Positions 1 through 8,566 of a stretch of 8,752 nt of DNA are shown piece after piece. How positions within the stretch are numbered: position 1 is the stretch's first letter; each line of letters starts with the position of its first letter. This DNA is from a virus (taxonomy: Duplodnaviria > Heunggongvirae > Uroviricota > Caudoviricetes), in IMG/VR virus record IMGVR_UViG_2698536647_000003, positions 1-8,752 of that record; one strand, 5' to 3'. The notes beneath the pieces are model-generated. The model worked only from the letters and a program-made list of their open reading frames with translations. It was not told the origin of the DNA and did no database searches. Made by a program: the position numbers and the translations under genes.

Positions 1-804
1 CTGCGCCCACGGCACTGATGATTTTGGTGTTTGAGGGTCAGTGGTTGTTAGAAAACGGCTGAATACCGCATTACCGTAAGTAATCCACAGCTGCGCAATT
101 CGATGCCCGGTGTAGGAACTCTGAAACCCACAGCCATACGAAGGAGCCCACAGAGTATTGCCATCAGCATCACTGATGAAGGATGAACTGGCATCTGTGG
201 GCTTATTTTGGAGAACAGCACCAACCCCAAAAGCTCCCACCTGCATAACATTCCCTGCCGCAGTTCCGACATCCTTTGTCGCACTACTTCCTAAACCGAG
301 GTTTGTGCGAACGTCTGCTGCGTTCGTTGCCCCGGTCCCGCCCTGCGCAATAGAAAGCGCAGTAGTGAGTCCTTTCAGCTCCGTGATATCGCTGTTTGCC
401 CCCTTTCTGGCAAGTGCACCAATGCCCGGAATATTCACGGAAGCTCCGTTGATGGTAACGGTGATAGTTTGGTTTGCTGAGGTGGTGGCGAACGTCTCCC
501 ATGCGCCGATATTCTCGTCATACTCTTTGATGAGCTGAGACATGGCCTGCGCCAGGCCGTCGACTGAGATATTGTCTGACACAAGGATTCCATACTTCTG
601 GCCGCTCAGCGCCGGGGAAGCAACTGGCGTAACCGTCAAAGACGTGGCGCTGTTCACGGATGAAATCTGGAACAGCTGCACCGGGTTAGACATCACGATA
701 ATTGTCTGCCCAGCGCGAACCTGGCTGGCGGGAGCTGTCCAGTTTGTGCCGGAGCCGGTTGCGGTATTTCCGTTAATAGAGATAGTTCCTGTGCTATAAA
801 TCAT
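1..804 (-). CDS. Tail fibre protein, N-terminal 268 codons (partial; 3' end lies beyond the window start)
   Basis: Hand translation of the minus strand from ATG 804..802 is open for 268 codons to position 1 (MIYSTGTISINGNTATGSGTNW...), which explains why this frame is absent from the ATG-to-stop ORF track. TAGGAG sits 5 nt upstream of the ATG (811..816 on the minus strand). The translation contains LSIAQGGTGATNAADVRTNLGLG, a motif I recognise as recurrent in phage tail fibres. Position is immediately distal to J. Confidence 0.7.
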   Translation of the reverse strand, partial: MIYSTGTISINGNTATGSGTNWTAPASQVRAGQTIIVMSNPVQLFQISSVNSATSLTVTPVASPALSGQKYGILVSDNISVDGLAQAMSQLIKEYDENIGAWETFATTSANQTITVTINGASVNIPGIGALARKGANSDITELKGLTTALSIAQGGTGATNAADVRTNLGLGSSATKDVGTAAGNVMQVGAFGVGAVLQNKPTDASSSFISDADGNTLWAPSYGCGFQSSYTGHRIAQLWITYGNAVFSRFLTTTDPQTPKSSVPWAQ

Positions 805-881
805 AACAACTCCTAAATTTAGACAACATGAAGCCCGGAGAGGTATATAACCCTCACCAGAAATAATTTCTGAATTGGTTT

Positions 882-1228
882 TTAATACATGTTGGGCAAC
901 GCCAGTGTTGGCATAGCTATAGTTGTATCAAATGCCATTGACCACCCACCCAAATAATAATTGCCGACTACTTTATTCCTTTCTGCTCTGACATTCCCAC
1001 CTGTCATTACAATTCCTTTATACCTAATATTTCCGTAACCACCAACGTGTCGACAGTTAGCCCCGGTATAAACAATCTGGCAAAATTCATCACCAATATT
1101 CAGGTTCGCATTGGCGATATTTATTGTCCCATCAAAAATGAATGGCTTCGTGCAAGTAAGAAGACGTTTGCGTTGACGATTGGTTTATTCAATCCATCAA
1201 CCAAAATACCATGTAAACGAATTGCCAT
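882..1228 (-). pseudogene. Possible frameshifted remnant of a side-tail-fibre (Stf-like) N-terminus
   Basis: Minus-strand ATG at 1228 gives MAIRLHGILVDGLNKPIVNANVFLLARSHSFLMGQ then a stop at 1121..1123. Its first ~27 residues resemble the lambda Stf N-terminus as I recall it (MAVKISGVLKDGTGKPVQNCTIQLKARR). A second frame is open from 1130 to 882 (82 codons). AT-rich, no convincing intact gene. Confidence 0.25.
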
Positions 1229-1309
1229 AACATTTCCCACTTTATTTTACTTACTCAACACAACAAGTATATTAAAATTGAACCTTGTCAACAACACAAA
1301 GGAGTCCCA

Positions 1310-1543
1310 ATGAAACTCGCTCTAATTATGCTGCCATTATGTCTGTCCCTCACTGCATGTGGTAATGGTTTAAATACCGGTAAACCAAATTCCGGTGTCA
1401 TTCCAAAACCTTTGGATCGAGATGGTAACGGTTCTTTAATTTATGATACCGAAAACCTTCCAATGACGGGGCAGTGGTGTCACGAGATTGATCACGAATA
1501 CCGACGAATCGGTAGCCCTTCTAACTGTGTTATTGACTACTAA
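1310..1543 (+). CDS. Small predicted outer-membrane lipoprotein (77 aa), moron convergent with J
   Basis: ORF-track ORF with AAGGAG at 1299..1304, 5 nt before the ATG. N-terminus MKLALIMLPLCLSLTAC has a charged n-region, hydrophobic core and lipobox L-T-A-C (Gly at +2). AT-rich relative to flanking tail genes. A perfect hairpin terminator begins 2 nt after the stop. Confidence 0.6.
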   Translation: MKLALIMLPLCLSLTACGNGLNTGKPNSGVIPKPLDRDGNGSLIYDTENLPMTGQWCHEIDHEYRRIGSPSNCVIDY

Positions 1544-1544
1544 A

Positions 1545-1572
1545 TATTAACCCCTCAAAAGAGGGGTTAATA
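1545..1572. terminator. Bidirectional intrinsic terminator between the convergent lipoprotein gene and J
   Basis: Perfect 12-bp inverted repeat TATTAACCCCTC / GAGGGGTTAATA with a 4-nt AAAA loop. It is followed by TTTT (1573..1576) on the plus strand and flanked by A/T on the minus strand. It lies between the plus-strand stop (1541..1543) and the J stop (1575..1577). Confidence 0.65.
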
Positions 1573-1574
1573 TT

Positions 1575-4500
1575 TTAACCTGTGAATGAACCAGATCCGT
1601 GTGATACTATGACAGTAGGCGAATAAATGGACGCGCCCCTGTTATTTTGAGCGGACACTTTAATACGCACTGTTACGTTTGGACCTGTTACAACCGCAGA
1701 ATGCATGATAAGTCTCTCCATGTCTTGTACGGATGAACCACTCTCATTGCCGTTAATATTGATTAGTCCTGCACCATTACCTTTAACGTTTGCTATAACA
1801 CAGACGTGTCTTGCGTGCCCAGAACTGGATGAATCCGTATAAGTTATTACCTTTTCTAAAAGGCCGTCACTAGACCGACTAACGTCAGTTCCGGTGTGCA
1901 TATTTGCAATGTCCCCGATAAAACTTTGGGCTTCCACAGTCCCTTTGAATTTACCGCTTGTTGCTTGTATCTCACCAGTAAATCTACCGCCACTAGCATA
2001 TACTACACCTCTGACGGTCACATTGTTGAATTCAGCATCTCCAGCTTTATTCAACTTCCAACCAGCAGAACCAGCTGCATAGTTGTTGGACTGGATATAG
2101 TTACCGATTTTTGCGTTCTCAATGGTGCCGTCCTGGATGAAGCTGGCCCGGATGAATGTCTGTCCATTCTGGATCACAAACGGCAAAGCCACGCTATTTC
2201 CGGCTGCCGTGGTGACGGCGAAGCGATCAGCCAGGAAGATAACCTGCGACTGCATGCCGGATGGCGTATTCTCCACGCCGATACCCATCCCCGCGGCGTA
2301 ATACTGCCCGTTGCTGGAGACACCAACTTTGATGTTGTACATCGCGCTGAGGTCGCCGTTTACGTTCGCTATAGCCTGAGCGTTGGTTGTGATGGCTGAG
2401 GTATGCCCGTTCACCGTCGCCGTGATGCTGTTTACCTGCGTGGCCATAGCCTGCTGGTAATCGGAGAACGTCTGGTTCAGGCTGTTGATGGATGCCTTGT
2501 TGCCGTTAACGTCCGTCTGCAGGCTCAGCAGCGAGCGCGCCGTTGCCTCCCTGTCGTTGACAATCACCTCATCAATACGGTCCAGATTCGCGCTGTTGCC
2601 GGCGACCGATGCAGAAAGGGTTTTACGCGTGGCCACCTGAGCGAGGTTGGCCTGGATTATCGCAATTGCAGAGTTCTTCACCCCGCCCGTCATGCCGTCC
2701 ATAGAAACGCTGATGTTGTCGATTCGCTGGCCCAGGGCGGTATCAGCCGTCGCAACGGTCTGCTCAAGCTGACTGAGTGAAGACGAAACATTCCCGACCG
2801 TGCTGGAAAGCTCATTAACGCTGGTCTGAACCTTCCCTACGTCCTGGGCATTTTTGGCGATATCTTTCGCTTGCTGCTCCAGTTCGTCGTTAGCCTGTTT
2901 GATATCGTTAGCCATGCCAGCAATTTTTTCATTGCTGTCCACAGCGTTCTCGATCAGGTCTTTGAACGTATCGGAGCCTTTCATGTCCTCCAGGATCACA
3001 TCTGTGATGTCGGAAACATCGATGCTGGCCTGTCCTCGCACCCATTCTGTGTACCCTGATTCGTTGCCGCTGCGGTCCACCAGCTGAGCGCGGTACCAGA
3101 AAATCTGCCCAGCCTTGAGGCCCATCTGCTGATATTTGCGCTGCGGATAAGGCACATCGGCCAGCAGCATCGCATCGTCCTCGGTTCCGGTCAGGCTGTA
3201 CTGAATTTCCGTCTTCAGCGTGTCGTCGGTATTCGCCGGGAATCCCCAGTTCAGCTCGATGCCGAAAACCACATTTTCAGAAGCGATGAAGCCAACCGGC
3301 TTCGGTGGATTGCCCACTTTACCCGTCAGCGTTTTCTCTTCTGAATAGCCCCATCCGGATGAAATTTCAGCGGCGTTGATGGCACGCACGCGCACCAGGT
3401 ATCGTCCCGCATAAATGCCCGGAACATCGAACGATGTGGTGGAGCTGCGCGGCACGTTAACCCAGTTCCCGTCGTTGCGGCGCCATTGTGCTTCATAGGC
3501 GATAGCGTTCTGCGCCTGGTACCAGCTCACGCGCATTGTTTCGACGCTGATATTTTGCTGAACCACGGAAAACGAGCTGATCACGATATTCGCAGGCGGC
3601 GACTGGTTGCCCGGCGGGATCACGCTCACCGGCCGTTGGTCAATGATGGCTCCGGTATCGATACGGGCATATTTATCCGGGTCGTGCCATGCGCCGGTAA
3701 TCGAGAAAGTGCCATCATTGTTATCGGAAACGCTGACAACTCGATACTGCTGCGCGTAGAGCTCGTCAGATTCAACCACCCAAACAGCTTCGGCCTGTGG
3801 CGTCTCACTGTATGCCGTGGTGACTGTGACTGATTCCCCGTTCACGGCCTGAATGGTCCTGCTCTGCGACGCTCCGGAGGGAAGGTTGAGAATAAGGCGA
3901 TCACCTGGTGCTGCATCAGCTACGCGGTCAAGTTTGATAACGCGACCGTTAACGGCGCTGATGCGGCCGCCCATAACCTTTCCGGAAAGCAGCTCGTCTG
4001 CCACGGCGATGATGTAGCCAGGCTGCGGAATGTTTCCGTCCAGCCCGACATCAAACGAAACAACGCGATCCTTGTTGTTGGTGAGAATGCCCCAGCGCCC
4101 CTTTCGGTTCGCTTCTGACTGCCTGGTGCAGCCGATGGCTGTCATTTCCAGCTGATTGAAGCCGTATCGCGCTACCAGCGCCTGCTCAAATACCGGCTCC
4201 ATCGCGTCGGCATAAGCGTTACCCGGGTCTGACCATGAAACCAGCGCTGTGGTGTAGCGGGTTTTCGTGGTGCTGCTTGAATAGGTGAAGCGACCGCCAA
4301 CAACGTTGGCGCGCGTGTAGCTGTAATCAACATCTCGGGGCATATCGGCCAGAGCAACGATCTGATCGCCTCCCCAGTACGTCATGCCACGGAATATGGC
4401 CGCAAAATCACGCAGGACTGTATAAGCGTCGTTTCGGTCCTGGATGTACACGTTGCAGGTATAACGCGGTTCGGTACCGTTGCCCCCTTTGCCGTCTGGT

Positions 4501-5465
4501 ACCATCTGATCACAATACTGGGCAACCTGATAAAGCGTCCATTTATCAATATTCGCAGCGGTCAAACGGTGCCCGAGGCCGAACCGGTCAGAAACAACCA
4601 GATCGTAAAAAATCCACGCAGGGTTATCCGTCCATGCCCACTTAAACGCACCGGTCCATGTACCGCTATAAGTGCGGGTTTCAGGGTCGTAGGTATCTGG
4701 AACGCGGATAACACGGCCGCGGGGCTCGCAGGAGATCTGCGGGATAGAGCCGTTAAACTGACTTGAATCGAATTCGATGTAGAGTAGCGCTGTGTTTGGA
4801 TATCGTAACTTGGCGTCAATCACCTCGGTGAAGCTCTGCAGCGTCATCGTGTCGCCGATCTTCGCGCTGTTGGCATCAGAGGTAATCTTACGCAGACGTA
4901 TTGTCCAGGTGCTGCCAGCTTGCGGTAAATCGATACGGTGGCTGCGCTCATAACCAGACGTCGTTTTGCCGGTCACGCTGGTATTGAGTACCGTCTGCCA
5001 TGTGCCGCCGTCCGTCTGCAGGTCAATCGCATAATTGACCGAGTAACCCACCAGATCTCCGTCGTCTTCCTGTTTGAAAAGCGAGGGCCATTTCAGACGC
5101 AGACGAACTGCTGAAAGCTGCGTATTGGTAAACGTGCGCGTCCAGGCTGTAGCGCTTGATACCTCAGTTCCCACGCTGATTTCGTTTTCGGTACCGGGAA
5201 TACCCTGAATATATTTTTGAGCCTGCGTCCCCGCGCGAAACTCCCACGTCACGCCGCTGAAGTTTTGGGAACCGTCGGCATTCTCCAGCGCCGTTCCGTC
5301 CAGGTAGATATCTTTGCCGGTTAGCTGCCCTGCGAACTCCCCTTCGCCAAGCGCAACGAGGATTTTTGCCTTCGCTACAGATTGCAGATCATCAGGCTGT
5401 TCGGTAGGAGTTCGTGAACTGGATTTGCCGCCTTTGCGCCCCTTTAATACTTTCTCTGTAGCCAT
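1575..5465 (-). CDS. J: Host specificity protein J (central tail fibre / tail tip), 1296 aa
   Basis: Single 3891-nt ORF. The N-terminal region (KGGKSSSRTPTEQPDDLQS...) and the segment YYAAGMGIGVENTPSGMQSQVIFLADRFAV... resemble lambda gpJ as I recall it. It sits after M-L-K-I in lambda order. Start ATG 5465 has only a weak GGA-type Shine-Dalgarno. Confidence 0.93.
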   Translation of the reverse strand: MATEKVLKGRKGGKSSSRTPTEQPDDLQSVAKAKILVALGEGEFAGQLTGKDIYLDGTALENADGSQNFSGVTWEFRAGTQAQKYIQGIPGTENEISVGTEVSSATAWTRTFTNTQLSAVRLRLKWPSLFKQEDDGDLVGYSVNYAIDLQTDGGTWQTVLNTSVTGKTTSGYERSHRIDLPQAGSTWTIRLRKITSDANSAKIGDTMTLQSFTEVIDAKLRYPNTALLYIEFDSSQFNGSIPQISCEPRGRVIRVPDTYDPETRTYSGTWTGAFKWAWTDNPAWIFYDLVVSDRFGLGHRLTAANIDKWTLYQVAQYCDQMVPDGKGGNGTEPRYTCNVYIQDRNDAYTVLRDFAAIFRGMTYWGGDQIVALADMPRDVDYSYTRANVVGGRFTYSSSTTKTRYTTALVSWSDPGNAYADAMEPVFEQALVARYGFNQLEMTAIGCTRQSEANRKGRWGILTNNKDRVVSFDVGLDGNIPQPGYIIAVADELLSGKVMGGRISAVNGRVIKLDRVADAAPGDRLILNLPSGASQSRTIQAVNGESVTVTTAYSETPQAEAVWVVESDELYAQQYRVVSVSDNNDGTFSITGAWHDPDKYARIDTGAIIDQRPVSVIPPGNQSPPANIVISSFSVVQQNISVETMRVSWYQAQNAIAYEAQWRRNDGNWVNVPRSSTTSFDVPGIYAGRYLVRVRAINAAEISSGWGYSEEKTLTGKVGNPPKPVGFIASENVVFGIELNWGFPANTDDTLKTEIQYSLTGTEDDAMLLADVPYPQRKYQQMGLKAGQIFWYRAQLVDRSGNESGYTEWVRGQASIDVSDITDVILEDMKGSDTFKDLIENAVDSNEKIAGMANDIKQANDELEQQAKDIAKNAQDVGKVQTSVNELSSTVGNVSSSLSQLEQTVATADTALGQRIDNISVSMDGMTGGVKNSAIAIIQANLAQVATRKTLSASVAGNSANLDRIDEVIVNDREATARSLLSLQTDVNGNKASINSLNQTFSDYQQAMATQVNSITATVNGHTSAITTNAQAIANVNGDLSAMYNIKVGVSSNGQYYAAGMGIGVENTPSGMQSQVIFLADRFAVTTAAGNSVALPFVIQNGQTFIRASFIQDGTIENAKIGNYIQSNNYAAGSAGWKLNKAGDAEFNNVTVRGVVYASGGRFTGEIQATSGKFKGTVEAQSFIGDIANMHTGTDVSRSSDGLLEKVITYTDSSSSGHARHVCVIANVKGNGAGLININGNESGSSVQDMERLIMHSAVVTGPNVTVRIKVSAQNNRGASIYSPTVIVSHGSGSFTG

Positions 5466-5476
5466 ATCGCGTCCAT

Positions 5477-5499
5477 AAAAAAAGCCACCCGAAGGCGGC
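5477..5499 (-). terminator. Intrinsic terminator on the minus strand, ending 11 nt upstream of the J start codon
   Basis: Minus-strand RNA reads GCCGCC-UUCG-GGUGGC (6-bp stem with one G.U, UUCG tetraloop) followed by seven U (plus 5477..5483 is A7). Confidence 0.6.
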
Positions 5500-5631
5500 T
5501 ACTGTTTAAATATCAGGCTGTTGGTAACAGGAATCCCTGGTTAATGTGTAAGCTCAGCCCGCCAGTGGTAGGCCTCTGGCGTTAACTGACCGAGGGATGG
5601 CTGAAGTACCCGGTTAAAATGGAGTAATAAG

Positions 5632-5847
5632 ATGATCGAAGAAAAGTTCGTGGATTTTAGATTTACTCTTGACGAAAATATTCCTAGAGAAATCGCTTTA
5701 GAAATTGTGGCTCTAAGACAAGTTACAATGGTATTAACAGCAGCATTGCCAGTAGATACAAGGCAACAAGTTATTGAAATCCTATCAAAGACAAACTCAC
5801 CACAAATTCAAGACATCGTCAAAAATATGAAGCTTATTGACGCCTAA
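5632..5847 (+). CDS. Hypothetical 71-aa protein in the I-J insertion (plus strand)
   Basis: ORF-track ORF with GGAG at 5621..5624, 7 nt before the ATG. AT-rich. Its 3' end overlaps the 3' end of the minus-strand 49-aa ORF by about 50 nt, so at most one of the two may be real. No recognisable motif. Confidence 0.35.
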   Translation: MIEEKFVDFRFTLDENIPREIALEIVALRQVTMVLTAALPVDTRQQVIEILSKTNSPQIQDIVKNMKLIDA

Positions 5848-5946
5848 TGTCATTGAAGCATCGTACTCTACGGTCTCATGCGGGACCGTTTCATTAACTT
5901 CAGATGTTTCATTTTCAGTTTTTTCTACTCGTGACTCAAAAGACAT
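5797..5946 (-). CDS. Hypothetical small acidic protein (49 aa) immediately downstream of I
   Basis: Hand translation: MSFESRVEKTENETSEVNETVPHETVEYDASMTLGVNKLHIFDDVLNLW (11 Asp/Glu against 3 Arg/Lys). AAGGAG at 5958..5953 sits 6 nt before ATG 5946 and 8 nt after the I stop. Below the ORF track's apparent length cut-off. Confidence 0.35.
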   Translation of the reverse strand: MSFESRVEKTENETSEVNETVPHETVEYDASMTLGVNKLHIFDDVLNLW

Positions 5947-5966
5947 ACACATCTCCTTAACTTAGC

Positions 5967-6554
5967 TTACTGCTGATCTTCGACATATATCCCGGCAGAA
6001 ATAATCGCTCCGCCGATTCGACGCTTACCATAAAGCAGAGGCACTGGGTAGCCTTGCGCTGCAGTGTTGGTTACCCCGCCAAACGCATACGATGCACGGT
6101 TATCTGCGCTTTGTTTGCTGGCCAGCCCTGTAGCCTGAGGGGATAACATCTGAACTACCCCCCCCAGCGTTATGGACGCACCAGCAGCAAACATCATATT
6201 GCTGGCAGCTATACTCAGACCTGGCATCCAGATCGATGCAATCACTAATACTGCGCCCAGGATAGTTTGAATCAAACCGGCTTTTTTACTCCCGATGATT
6301 ACCGGAACAATGCGAATAACCTCGCCGGTAATCGGGAAGCCAAGGTCATCCACACCGATGTTTTTTTTACCCTTAAACACGGAGTATGTGAGCCCACGGC
6401 GTTGGCTGGAAATCATAAACTGCTCAAATCCAGGAATGGTTTTTGCGAGTGCAACGCCTGCTTCGCTTACGCGGGATATCAGACGGTAGTGAACTTTGCC
6501 AAACGTTTTTCCAAGAACACTGCCTAATTCAATTCGACTCATGACCTCTTGCAT
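5967..6554 (-). CDS. I: Tail assembly protein I (ubiquitin-like N-terminal domain, hydrophobic C-terminal region)
   Basis: Resembles lambda gpI as I recall it (e.g. ...GYPVPLLYG... near the C-terminus, Gly/Ala-rich hydrophobic stretch). I trimmed the ORF-track start (6641) to ATG 6554, which follows a GGGGGGA run by 4 nt and lies downstream of the 6570..6591 terminator. An in-frame ATG at 6542 is an alternative. Confidence 0.85.
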   Translation of the reverse strand: MQEVMSRIELGSVLGKTFGKVHYRLISRVSEAGVALAKTIPGFEQFMISSQRRGLTYSVFKGKKNIGVDDLGFPITGEVIRIVPVIIGSKKAGLIQTILGAVLVIASIWMPGLSIAASNMMFAAGASITLGGVVQMLSPQATGLASKQSADNRASYAFGGVTNTAAQGYPVPLLYGKRRIGGAIISAGIYVEDQQ

Positions 6555-6569
6555 ATAATCCCCCCACGT

Positions 6570-6591
6570 AAAAAAACCGCCGAAGCGGTTT
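6570..6591 (-). terminator. Intrinsic terminator on the minus strand after the K-I lipoprotein gene
   Basis: Minus-strand RNA reads AAACCGC-UUCG-GCGGUUU followed by a U-run (plus 6570..6576 is A7). Lies between the lipoprotein stop (6616) and the I start (6554). Confidence 0.65.
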
Positions 6592-6615
6592 AATTTGGTT
6601 GATTTATTTAGGTGT

Positions 6616-7011
6616 TTATTTATTAAAATGTTTCTTTTCAATGCTCATTGCTTGATTAAAGAAATTTGTAGCATTAATTACCGCCCTTTCACAATCCTTC
6701 TGCCCATAATGTCGATGGCATTGGAATTCAGCATTTATTGCCGTATCGCCGGACTGTTTAACCTTAGATGCCCGTCCTGCAAGTTGCCTTGTATCAATAG
6801 GTGGGAATGTTGTTATAAATGTATCGTTAGCTGATTCTACTCTCATTTTTGTTGCAAACTCCAAATGCTGAGGAACCTTCGACCAAAGATAACTACATTC
6901 AGCCTCTGATGAACATGTGACAGGCTTAGTATCTAATACCGGCATTGGCCTATTATCAGCACATCCAGCGGTGGCAAGTACCACAAGACCAGAGAACAAT
7001 ATTTTTTTCAC
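6616..7011 (-). CDS. Cys-rich predicted outer-membrane lipoprotein (131 aa), moron between K and I
   Basis: ORF-track ORF starting at GTG 7011..7009 (no in-frame ATG nearby), with GGGAAG 7 nt upstream. N-terminus MKKILFSGLVVLATAGC fits a lipoprotein signal with Cys+1 and Ala at +2. The mature part has 4 further Cys. AT-rich; own terminator downstream. No homolog recognised. Confidence 0.6.
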   Translation of the reverse strand: MKKILFSGLVVLATAGCADNRPMPVLDTKPVTCSSEAECSYLWSKVPQHLEFATKMRVESANDTFITTFPPIDTRQLAGRASKVKQSGDTAINAEFQCHRHYGQKDCERAVINATNFFNQAMSIEKKHFNK

Positions 7012-7098
7012 AATTAAGCTTCCCTTTCATTGAAAATATCAGAGGAATACTAACATGAAGTTATGGAGTGAGTAATTAACAACTTAACCACTATAGAA

Positions 7099-7809
7099 TT
7101 AACAAAATACTTTGTACCGAAGTACTTTCATTGTTCTTTCCTGCCAGTAGCCACCATATGGCACGCGCTGGCTAAGATGACCGTACAAATGATGCAGTAG
7201 CATATTGCCCTCAAGCAGGATCCCCGCGTGATTCCACTTATCGGCCTGGACCTGCATGATGATGAGGTCCCCTTCCTGAGGCGGGCCATCAAACTCCCTG
7301 AATCCGCACTCGTACCAGCACTCCTGATAGAAATTGTCCGGGTAGTCGTTTTCCCACCAGGGATAATCCACCCGGTAATCGTGGAGCTCGATACCGTGGG
7401 TCTGCCGGAAATAGCTCATTACCAGACCCCAGCAATCGAAGTGGCCAAGCACGAACGGACGCTCCAGCAATGGCAGCTCCCCGCGTGGCTGAATGGTACG
7501 TAAATCCCCCTCTGGCCAGCTCACAATATGCCAGGGCAGCAGCGTTGCATCACACTGTGCCTTATCCAGCTCGCTGGCCTGCGTCGTCGCATCAGGATGG
7601 CTGTGAACAATGGCCACCACCGTCCCCCAGTCTTCTGCCGCTGCGTAATCTTCGGGGGACAGGTGAAAATGTTCAGTCGGCTCTGCTGCGAGATTACGAC
7701 AGGGAAAATAGCGCTCAACCCGGCTTTTCTGTGCCACCACGCCGCAGCACTCGCGCGGATATTCCGCTGCAGCGTGTGCCATGATGGCATCAATGGTTTT
7801 CTGGCGCAT
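7099..7809 (-). CDS. K: Tail assembly / tail tip protein K (JAMM/MPN metalloprotease-like N-domain plus NlpC/P60-like C-domain)
   Basis: JAMM motif visible: E in PRECCGVV, then HSHPDATTQASELD, which fits H-x-H-x7-S-x2-D. NlpC/P60-like Cys in GHFDCWGLV and His in WNHAGILL. Start set at ATG 7809 (protein MRQKTIDAIM...) with AGGAG 5 nt upstream; the L stop TGA (7813..7811) is 1 nt before it. The ORF-track start at 7845 is probably an upstream non-ATG artefact. Confidence 0.9.
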   Translation of the reverse strand: MRQKTIDAIMAHAAAEYPRECCGVVAQKSRVERYFPCRNLAAEPTEHFHLSPEDYAAAEDWGTVVAIVHSHPDATTQASELDKAQCDATLLPWHIVSWPEGDLRTIQPRGELPLLERPFVLGHFDCWGLVMSYFRQTHGIELHDYRVDYPWWENDYPDNFYQECWYECGFREFDGPPQEGDLIIMQVQADKWNHAGILLEGNMLLHHLYGHLSQRVPYGGYWQERTMKVLRYKVFC

Positions 7810-7810
7810 A

Positions 7811-8566
7811 TCAACTCCTGATAAGAGATGTACCGGGGAAACCACCGAACGGCAGCTCGTTGCTGTATCCGTGCCGGAGCTTGCAGGCCGTCAGCGTGCC
7901 GTTGCATACATCCAGCGAGGGATCGTCAACCGGATTATTGTTTTTGTCGAAATAGCGCGTTCCGGCATAGTCGCAGCCGTCGCCGGTACGATATTTATTC
8001 CGGATGCACCAGGTACACAGGGAATGAAGCTGTCGCGTCGGGATCATTTGCCCCTGCAGGTCCATCGGGCTGGATAGTGTGAACTCAACAACTTCATTGG
8101 TTTCACTGCTCTTTGCATCGATGTAGAAAACCTTCAGCTTCTCCTGGGTCGGATCGGCTGTCGGATTGCCTCCGGTGAAGTTTCTCGCATCAAGATACTT
8201 ACCAAGGGTGTCATGTATCGTCACCTTCGCCTGCAGCATATCGTCGTAAGCCAGGCAAAGCGCGGTGATCGAACTGTCGAGGTTAGCAACCGAAAGTTTT
8301 GGCTGGGCACTACTTCCCGAGGTTGAAGCTTCGATCCCATCAATCTGGCATGGCCACGCTTTATACTCCTCACCCTGCCACCAGATAGATTTTGCTGGCA
8401 GTTTATTTTCATCACCGCCAGCAGCCTCAATCTCTTCCGGGGTATGCGCGATGTTATGTGCGTGGAAGCGGAGTACATCTGACATACCGAACGCTGTGCC
8501 ATCGACAGAAAAAAGCCGGACTTCATTGCCCGGCTCGAGTTTTTGATAATCAGCATTAAGACTCAT
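7811..8566 (-). CDS. L: Tail tip protein L (251 aa)
   Basis: Position between M and K. C-terminal Cys cluster (LCTWCIRNKYRTGDGCDYAG ... CNGTLTACKLRHG) resembles the conserved Cys pattern of lambda gpL as I recall it. The ATG at 8566..8564 overlaps the M stop in an ATGA arrangement. Confidence 0.9.
   Translation of the reverse strand: MSLNADYQKLEPGNEVRLFSVDGTAFGMSDVLRFHAHNIAHTPEEIEAAGGDENKLPAKSIWWQGEEYKAWPCQIDGIEASTSGSSAQPKLSVANLDSSITALCLAYDDMLQAKVTIHDTLGKYLDARNFTGGNPTADPTQEKLKVFYIDAKSSETNEVVEFTLSSPMDLQGQMIPTRQLHSLCTWCIRNKYRTGDGCDYAGTRYFDKNNNPVDDPSLDVCNGTLTACKLRHGYSNELPFGGFPGTSLIRS

Follow-up and report, generated by a model that had tools for sequence, protein, structure and literature searches.

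The two hairpins that stand in front of the tail genes I and J in the analysed stretch of viral DNA (8,752 nt, hereafter the window), designated T2 and T1, are probably intrinsic (Rho-independent) terminators of an HK97/HK022-type moron architecture in a lambda-like tail operon, at which transcription would end in vivo. The feature as such is already known: putative terminators are annotated at the same positions in phage HK97, and since the HK97 record marks terminators at both, the hairpin finding has already been described. Juhala et al. 2000 reportedly set out the moron model for HK97 and HK022, with accessory genes that carry their own terminators and lie in a late operon read through by Q-modified polymerase. 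A moron denotes extra DNA with deviant GC content and its own promoter and terminator, a concept derived from the comparison of HK97 with HK022 (PMC3594210).

The window comprises a tail module of the lambda/HK97 type with the genes L, K, a lipoprotein cargo, I, a forward and a reverse small ORF, and J. The minus strand encodes L (PF05100), K (7099..7809), a tail tip protein with JAB and NlpC/P60 domains (PF14464, PF00877) corresponding to a 711-nt RefSeq CDS in the E. coli locus L001, I (5967..6554), a tail assembly protein of 195 aa from the ATG at 6554 (phrog_32, E 6.5e-72) matched in length by a RefSeq 'tail assembly protein' of L001, and J (1575..5465), the tail tip or host specificity protein of 1296 aa (PF24801, PF09327, PF13550, covering FNIII-A_GpJ and Phage_Tail_Tip; phrog_31). 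These Pfam and PHROG identities bear out the placement of the hairpins directly before the tail genes I and J. Between K and I, a minus-strand ORF of 131 aa (6616..7011, 39% GC) carries a lipoprotein-type signal, MKKILFSGLVVLATAGC, and belongs to phrog_16082, a family of unknown function, forming a moron closed by T2. Between I and J, a forward ORF of 51 aa (5797..5952, minus strand) with a strong Shine-Dalgarno sequence, AAGGAG, takes the position of HK97 gp22, recorded there as 'moron product'; it has no Pfam or PHROG family match and is unannotated by RefSeq in L001 and in a second E. coli locus, L003. The reverse ORF of 71 aa (5632..5847, plus strand, 35% GC; phrog_6806, WP_053263845) takes the position of HK97 gp23, recorded as 'reverse moron product'. 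It diverges from J and is convergent with the 51-aa ORF, overlapping it by 51 nt; the two transcripts would be largely complementary, so that mutual antisense interference is possible. A weak plus-strand hairpin, ACGGTCTCATGCGGGACCGT followed by TTCATT (5870..5889), lies 3' of the 71-aa ORF stop and inside the 51-aa ORF, at the position of the 'terminator, putative' of HK97 gene 23. The region 3' of J (1..1574) has 46% GC and contains several small ORFs in both orientations; a weak hairpin (1564..1551) immediately follows the stop codon of J, and the annotation of relatives assigns a DUF6453 protein and tail-fibre-domain proteins to it.

T1 and T2 were delineated by sequence reading, terminator scanning and RNA folding. 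T1 (5477..5500, minus strand) consists of the stem-loop AGCCGCC-UUCG-GGUGGCU at 5500..5483 and a U7 tract at 5483..5477, reading in context AACAGU-AGCCGCC-UUCG-GGUGGCU-UUUUUU-AUGGACGCGAU-AUG(J), with an 11-nt spacer, ATGGACGCGAT, leading from the T run to the J ATG (5465..5463). T2 (6570..6591, minus strand) consists of AAACCGC-UUCG-GCGGUUU at 6591..6574 and a T run at 6576..6570, reading UAA(25 nt)-AAACCGC-UUCG-GCGGUUU-UUUU-ACGUGGGGGGAUUAU-AUG(I); it lies 25 nt 3' of the lipoprotein TAA (6618..6616) and 15 nt 5' of the I start (ATG 6554..6552), and the Shine-Dalgarno sequence of I, GGGGGG, directly follows its T run. Each hairpin combines a 7-bp GC-rich stem containing 4-5 G-C pairs and a UUCG loop with an uninterrupted U7 directly after the stem, displaying both the stem and the U tract of an intrinsic terminator. 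Folding in a 41-nt context gave -12.3 kcal/mol for each, with z = -2.1 for T1 and -2.2 for T2 against shuffles. The coordinates, stems, loops, tails and 11-nt distance from T1 to J given in an earlier note on this DNA are all correct on sequence reading.

T1 and T2 rank second and third among the terminator-like sites of the window in a consensus scan, and they are located in its only sizeable intergenic gaps. With stricter thresholds (6 bp or more in the stem, four or more G-C pairs, and six or more T within the 8 bases that follow), a scan retained four distinct sites: T1, T2 on each of the two strands, and a site within L. Applied to 300 dinucleotide shuffles, this strict scan returned 0.22 sites on average, sites of such strength being about 20-fold rarer there. 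On the plus strand (6574..6591) T2 reads AAACCGCCGAAGCGGUUU followed by UUUAAUUU, and since this arrangement has the properties of a plus-strand terminator, it could stop antisense transcripts from the reverse ORF running through I. The window's strongest terminator-like hairpin (-16 kcal/mol) is located within the coding sequence of L (8513..8536, minus strand, codons EPG..VRL), where GAGCCGGGC-AAUGAA-GUCCGGCUU is followed by U6; some L variants preserve it, in one case by two synonymous changes (CCG/CGG to CCU/AGG), and others lack it.

Relative to compact relatives, both junctions of the window contain extra DNA, with a K-I gap of 544 nt (6555..7098) and an I-J gap of 501 nt, and the inserted cargo has the deviant base composition of morons, at 38-41% GC versus 50-55% in the tail genes I, J, K and L. 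The lipoprotein cassette possesses its own terminator in T2 and supplies a new Shine-Dalgarno sequence for I. T1 is the first terminator 3' of the forward 51-aa ORF; as the terminator of the I-J cargo it is the resident hairpin of that junction, not a cassette-specific one, and the same cassette type ends in such a hairpin at other sites. Consensus and weight-matrix scans found no promoter for the three cargo ORFs above the window background, the best candidates being TGnTAGTAT near 7055..7047 (minus strand) and TTGGTA-15-TAATGT at 5521..5547 (plus strand), neither scoring above background. Duplexes with the 16S 3' end reach -9.3 kcal/mol for I and -9.2 kcal/mol for the 51-aa ORF versus -3.0 kcal/mol for J, in agreement with the weak Shine-Dalgarno sequence claimed for J.

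Comparison with HK97 establishes homology to the I-J moron locus of HK97 and HK022, comprising the J-proximal block and the hairpin. HK97 15027..15166 is 95.8% identical to window 5440..5640, T1 hairpin included, and the corresponding values are 85% for HK022 and 95.5% for mEp506. The HK97 GenBank record (AF069529) lists 'terminator, putative' at 13799..13824, before I, and at 15107..15129, before J, the former being the counterpart of T2's position and the latter the homologue of T1; gp23 has a putative terminator of its own. Both genomes share the order K, insert, terminator, I, forward ORF, reverse ORF, conserved block, terminator and J, and in both a T run follows each hairpin, with about 11-15 nt to the start codon. 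They differ in detail: the T1 counterpart of HK97 is GCCACC-UUUG-GGUGGC, the stem at the T2 position is ACCACC in HK97 and ACCGC in the window, the K-I insert of HK97 is 321 nt without an annotated CDS whereas that of the window encodes the 131-aa lipoprotein, and the 51-aa and 71-aa ORFs are not gp22 (120 aa) and gp23 (86 aa). The records of ES18, HK75, mEpX1 and mEp234 also place terminator features on a J-type hairpin. Literature searches returned nothing usable on transcript mapping of terminators inside the lambda or HK97 tail operons and no occurrence of the phrase 'reverse moron', and the literature on the HK022 lysogen yielded torS only.

Lambda carries a homologous hairpin in the same position as T1, at 15470..15487 within its 60-nt I-J gap, where ACCGCC-UGCG-GGCGGU has the same 6-bp GC stem and tetraloop and is followed by a T-rich stretch and ATGGAGCG, comparable with ATGGRCGC in the window. 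In lambda, however, the U tract is interrupted (UUUUGUCAUUU), no cargo adjoins the hairpin and the J Shine-Dalgarno sequence is GAGG; the site was not among the hits of a terminator scan of lambda. The lambda genes lom and bor resemble the window cargo as accessory genes in or beside the late operon that are bounded by a GC hairpin and a T run, as exemplified by the terminator after lom (19612..19633), but they occupy other sites (lom after J, bor after Rz), encode other proteins and lack the reverse-moron leader described below. These lambda morons are active in the prophage state, and transcription in lytic growth passes through them (PMC3594210, PMC7067206). Other GC hairpins in the lambda late region, besides the one after lom, occur at 18920..18935 between J and lom and at 7163..7180 after the capsid gene E, the latter, AUGGCCC-UUCG-GGGCCAU, having a UUCG loop and a poor U tract.

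Natural alleles from complete E. coli genomes (L001-L004) separate the hairpins from the cargo. L001 is a prophage with the same layout as the window; L002 keeps the lipoprotein and has a different I-J cargo with a 210-aa reverse ORF; L003 keeps the I-J insert and has a different K-I cargo, a 171-aa lipoprotein; and L004 has no insert, with K overlapping I and an I-J gap of 53 nt. All four have T1 or a variant of its stem, even the cargo-free L004, whose J hairpin reads GCCACC-UUCG-GGUGGC-U7-AUGGGCGCGAU-AUG. T2 was found only alongside the 131-aa lipoprotein cassette, in L049, the one IMG/VR locus with that cargo, and in L001 and L002, and not where the K-I cargo differs or is missing, as in L003 and L004.

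The J side was surveyed in 80 IMG/VR loci with an HK97-type J N-terminus (L011-L090) and in 80 loci with a lambda-type J. Among the HK97-type loci the hairpin occurs in 78 of 80, comprising 66 of 68 cargo-free junctions, all 10 with cargo and both with an unmeasurable gap; the I-J gap is 46-56 nt in 68 of the 78 measurable loci, and cargo of 317-879 nt is present in the other 10. In the two exceptions without a hairpin, L033 and L084, one T in the 3' arm is replaced by G (GGGGGGC), which disrupts the J stem about 20-30 nt before J (locus position ~2975). All 80 lambda-type loci have ACCGCC-NNNN-GGCGGU, or GCCGCC/GGCGGC, at the same I-J place, combined with an interrupted U tract, UUUUGUCRUUU, and the J Shine-Dalgarno sequence GAGG, whereas in the HK97-type loci an unbroken U7 goes with a weak Shine-Dalgarno sequence for J. 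The spacing between the T run and the ATG of J hardly varies. Over 28 distinct J-hairpin variants the six stem pairs are 98.2% paired, against 31-55% in slid controls, with compensatory double changes at two of the six (G-C to A-U and A-U to G-C) and a freely variable loop.

The K-I junction behaves differently, its hairpin being present at none of the 5 bare junctions versus 56 of the 73 cargo-bearing ones among 78 loci. The bare junctions (5/78) have a gap of 47 nt, and in cargo-free relatives I either overlaps K or lies 47 nt 3' of K. Each K-I cargo cluster has its own hairpin type or none, and because 17 of the 73 cargos lack a hairpin, a terminator is not obligatory for such inserts. In K-I cassettes the closing T run is followed immediately by a GGAG- or GGGG-type Shine-Dalgarno sequence for I. 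The site (6555..7098 in the window) is an insertion hotspot, holding at least 20 cargo clusters in 80 loci, mostly small proteins with a lipoprotein signal (..L[AS]GC..). Given their adjacency to J, we presume that these lipoproteins may be receptor-masking or superinfection-exclusion proteins of the Cor/Llp type. The CCACC/GGUGG stem of the J hairpin recurs in 31 of the 56 K-I terminal hairpins, in at least three lipoprotein cargo families, and the loop found most often is UUCG, in 61 of 78 hairpins on the J side and 29 of 56 on the I side.

Judged from these sequence comparisons, T1 is an old, structurally selected resident of the I-J junction from lambda to HK97 and is not cargo-borne, because cargo-free loci keep the hairpin and its stem pairs compensate. 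The earlier note had taken the likeness of T1 and T2 as a sign that the two cargo cassettes share an origin or a common insertion design. A shared origin does not hold: the likeness is real but extends no further than hairpin and T run, the flanks upstream are unrelated (156 of 500 shuffles score as well), and T2 is cassette-specific while T1 is kept at 66 of 68 cargo-free junctions. Common descent of T1 and T2 was rejected on account of these dissimilar flanks and their differing distribution among loci, and since the flanks are unrelated, the twin look is a trait of this terminator population. The idea of a common insertion design survives in a weaker form at the level of that population, where most cassettes end in a hairpin, a T run and a fresh Shine-Dalgarno sequence. 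The conserved role of the J-side hairpin may not be confined to termination, since it persists at junctions that have no cargo to insulate and, in lambda-type phages, joins an invariant stem to a broken U tract at a site missing from the terminator scan of lambda.

With terminators preceding the tail genes I and J behind inserted cargo, late transcription has to pass both hairpins. The claim that it must read through them is sustained by terminator-type signals before I and J and by cargo that is absent from relatives. Q-type processive antitermination is the established way in which lambdoid phages pass terminators, and Q-loaded polymerase disregards terminators for thousands of bp because it keeps hairpins from forming (PMC9388147). 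That Q-modified polymerase reads through both sites is the standard interpretation, and Q would be the factor in this prophage. The window itself contains neither Q nor the Q-binding element nor PR'. In the closest E. coli prophage, 91% identical over 97% of the window, the genes for holin, lysozyme, terminase, head and tail are immediately preceded by one for a Q protein (PF03589, E 5.7e-47).

In the mechanism proposed here, the cargo genes would be expressed from promoters of their own. T2 would form the 3' end of the lipoprotein gene inserted between K and I, and in the lysogen transcripts of that gene would stop at T2 before entering I. Minus-strand transcripts originating in I or the 51-aa ORF would stop at T1, leaving J unexpressed in the lysogen, and the transcripts ending at T1 would run antisense across the 71-aa reverse gene. 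In lytic growth, the late transcript would start far upstream at a PR'-type promoter, and the Q nozzle on the late polymerase would prevent hairpin formation, so that both sites would be ignored and I and J made.

Beside T1, between the hairpin and the 71-aa ORF, lies a conserved plus-strand leader, the head of the reverse moron (5501..5631), delineated by alignments and pair counts. It contains the weak candidate promoter TTGGTA-15-TAATGT at 5521..5547, a Shine-Dalgarno sequence GGAG at 5621..5624, the invariant helix P0 (5554..5559 with 5599..5604, UCAGCC/GGCUGA) and, enclosed by it, helix P1 (5560..5565 with 5576..5581, CGYCAGYG/CRCUGRCG). This block of about 130-165 nt is conserved beside quite different reverse ORFs at the I-J site of HK97, HK022 and several IMG/VR and E. 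coli loci, and copies also lie elsewhere, ahead of L in ES18 and close to the right end of the HK633 genome. An IMG/VR scan with a pattern covering one P1 arm returned at least 120 stretches (L172-L291), with further copies in L006-L009. About 100 true leader instances are found among the matches listed; they precede at least 24 blastp clusters of 42-210-aa ORFs, and among these listed matches the reverse-ORF start always falls 70-81 nt after the UCAGCC motif. In an alignment of 49 distinct copies among the matches listed, which are related by descent, P1 is 98.5% paired on the reverse-ORF strand, with 40 G.U versus 0 A.C cells; one of its pairs splits into U-A 34, C-G 10 and U-G 4, and RNAalifold gives -16.5 kcal/mol for the alignment. 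Helices P2 and P3, about 82% paired with many non-pairs, are not claimed. A tail-strand terminator-type hairpin follows 50 of the 74 distinct leader copies among the matches listed. The leader is present in 222 of 5426 complete E. coli genomes, where RefSeq gives it no annotation. Rfam searches at permissive E values up to 1 gave no match in the window or the ES18, HK633 and HK97 loci, and the leader is absent from lambda, for example ahead of bor, with a single 3-mismatch match at chance level inside J. The wobble pairs of P1 suit the plus strand and so favour a 5' leader RNA belonging to the reverse genes over a small RNA on the tail strand. We tentatively consider T1 the outer end of a portable, unannotated expression module providing a promoter and a structured 5' leader RNA for reverse ORFs, a reading that we hold as possible but somewhat short of even probability.

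Several other readings of the hairpins bear on this picture. T1 could mainly be an mRNA element, serving as a barrier to 3' exonucleases that stabilises the message upstream once it has been cleaved, or as a structure that, together with its U tract, keeps the weak J ribosome-binding site open and recruits ribosomes via protein S1, with termination of stray lysogenic transcripts as a side effect. Conservation of the J hairpin at 66 of 68 cargo-free junctions and in all 80 lambda-type loci, the near-fixed spacing to the J ATG and the weak J Shine-Dalgarno sequence (-3.0 kcal/mol) are consistent with such a role. A role in mRNA stability or J translation is a live and non-exclusive rival because lambda keeps the stem with a broken U tract, at a site missed by the terminator scan, and has GAGG, whereas HK97-type loci pair a perfect U7 with a weak Shine-Dalgarno sequence. 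The geometry of T1, however, is that of a textbook intrinsic terminator, a T-rich tract needless for a pure stability hairpin is kept in both lineages, and a J-type hairpin with a T run ends mobile cassettes before other genes (L in ES18, among others), where no J start is involved. As the main function of T1 the mRNA role is unlikely, and because Q-modified polymerase blocks hairpins only at the exit channel, the two roles are compatible. Quite improbable is the reading that the hairpins act as short shared DNA junctions at which homologous or Red/RecT-type recombination swaps cassettes between phages. The CCACC/GGTGG stem that 31 of 56 K-I hairpins from at least three cargo families share with the J hairpin, the at least 20 cargo clusters at the K-I site, the end of ES18 and HK633 homology to the window's I-J block right after the T run, and the RecE/RecT encoded by the closest prophage would all suit it. 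Yet the loop varies and the stem compensates, so selection acts on structure and not on sequence identity; direct hairpin repeats flanking the essential gene I would favour lethal deletions, and the shared stretch is merely about 25-30 bp.

A tail-strand small RNA encoded by the block of about 130 nt at 5631..5501 (minus strand), with T1 as its terminator, would account for conservation of the block beside unrelated ORFs and for the terminator-type end of 50 of 74 distinct instances among the matches listed. The 40 G.U cells of P1, however, fit the plus strand with no A.C cells and would be mispaired on the tail-gene strand, the position where a promoter would be needed has no promoter-like site, 24 of the 74 distinct instances among the matches listed have no terminator, and Rfam gave no match. 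This reading is very improbable, and a small RNA ending at T1 was rejected because the P1 wobble pairs fit only the opposite strand and no promoter is in place. That the hairpins are functionless chance inverted repeats might be argued from a lenient scan, which found 10 terminator-like sites in the window versus 8.6 expected from shuffles, but the strict scan (4 versus 0.22), the location in the only sizeable gaps and the conservation in about 160 loci with compensatory changes leave this reading almost no probability, and the conservation data effectively refute it.

For the terminator reading of T1 and T2, the finding of the earlier note amounts to the moron model restated and adds no new biology. 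Being a fixture of the I-J junction from lambda to HK97, the hairpin before J is unsuitable as a marker of cargo insertion. Small lipoprotein and reverse-strand genes accumulate at the K-I and I-J junctions, and these rich hotspots could be mined for superinfection-exclusion or other lysogenic-conversion functions. The leader is the only part that might be new and the only element that might repay experiments. If the module reading is true, many prophage accessory genes whose transcription opposes that of the late operon would be under the control of one shared cis-regulatory RNA, the leader, and the hairpin on the tail strand would protect the next essential gene from the two convergent transcripts.
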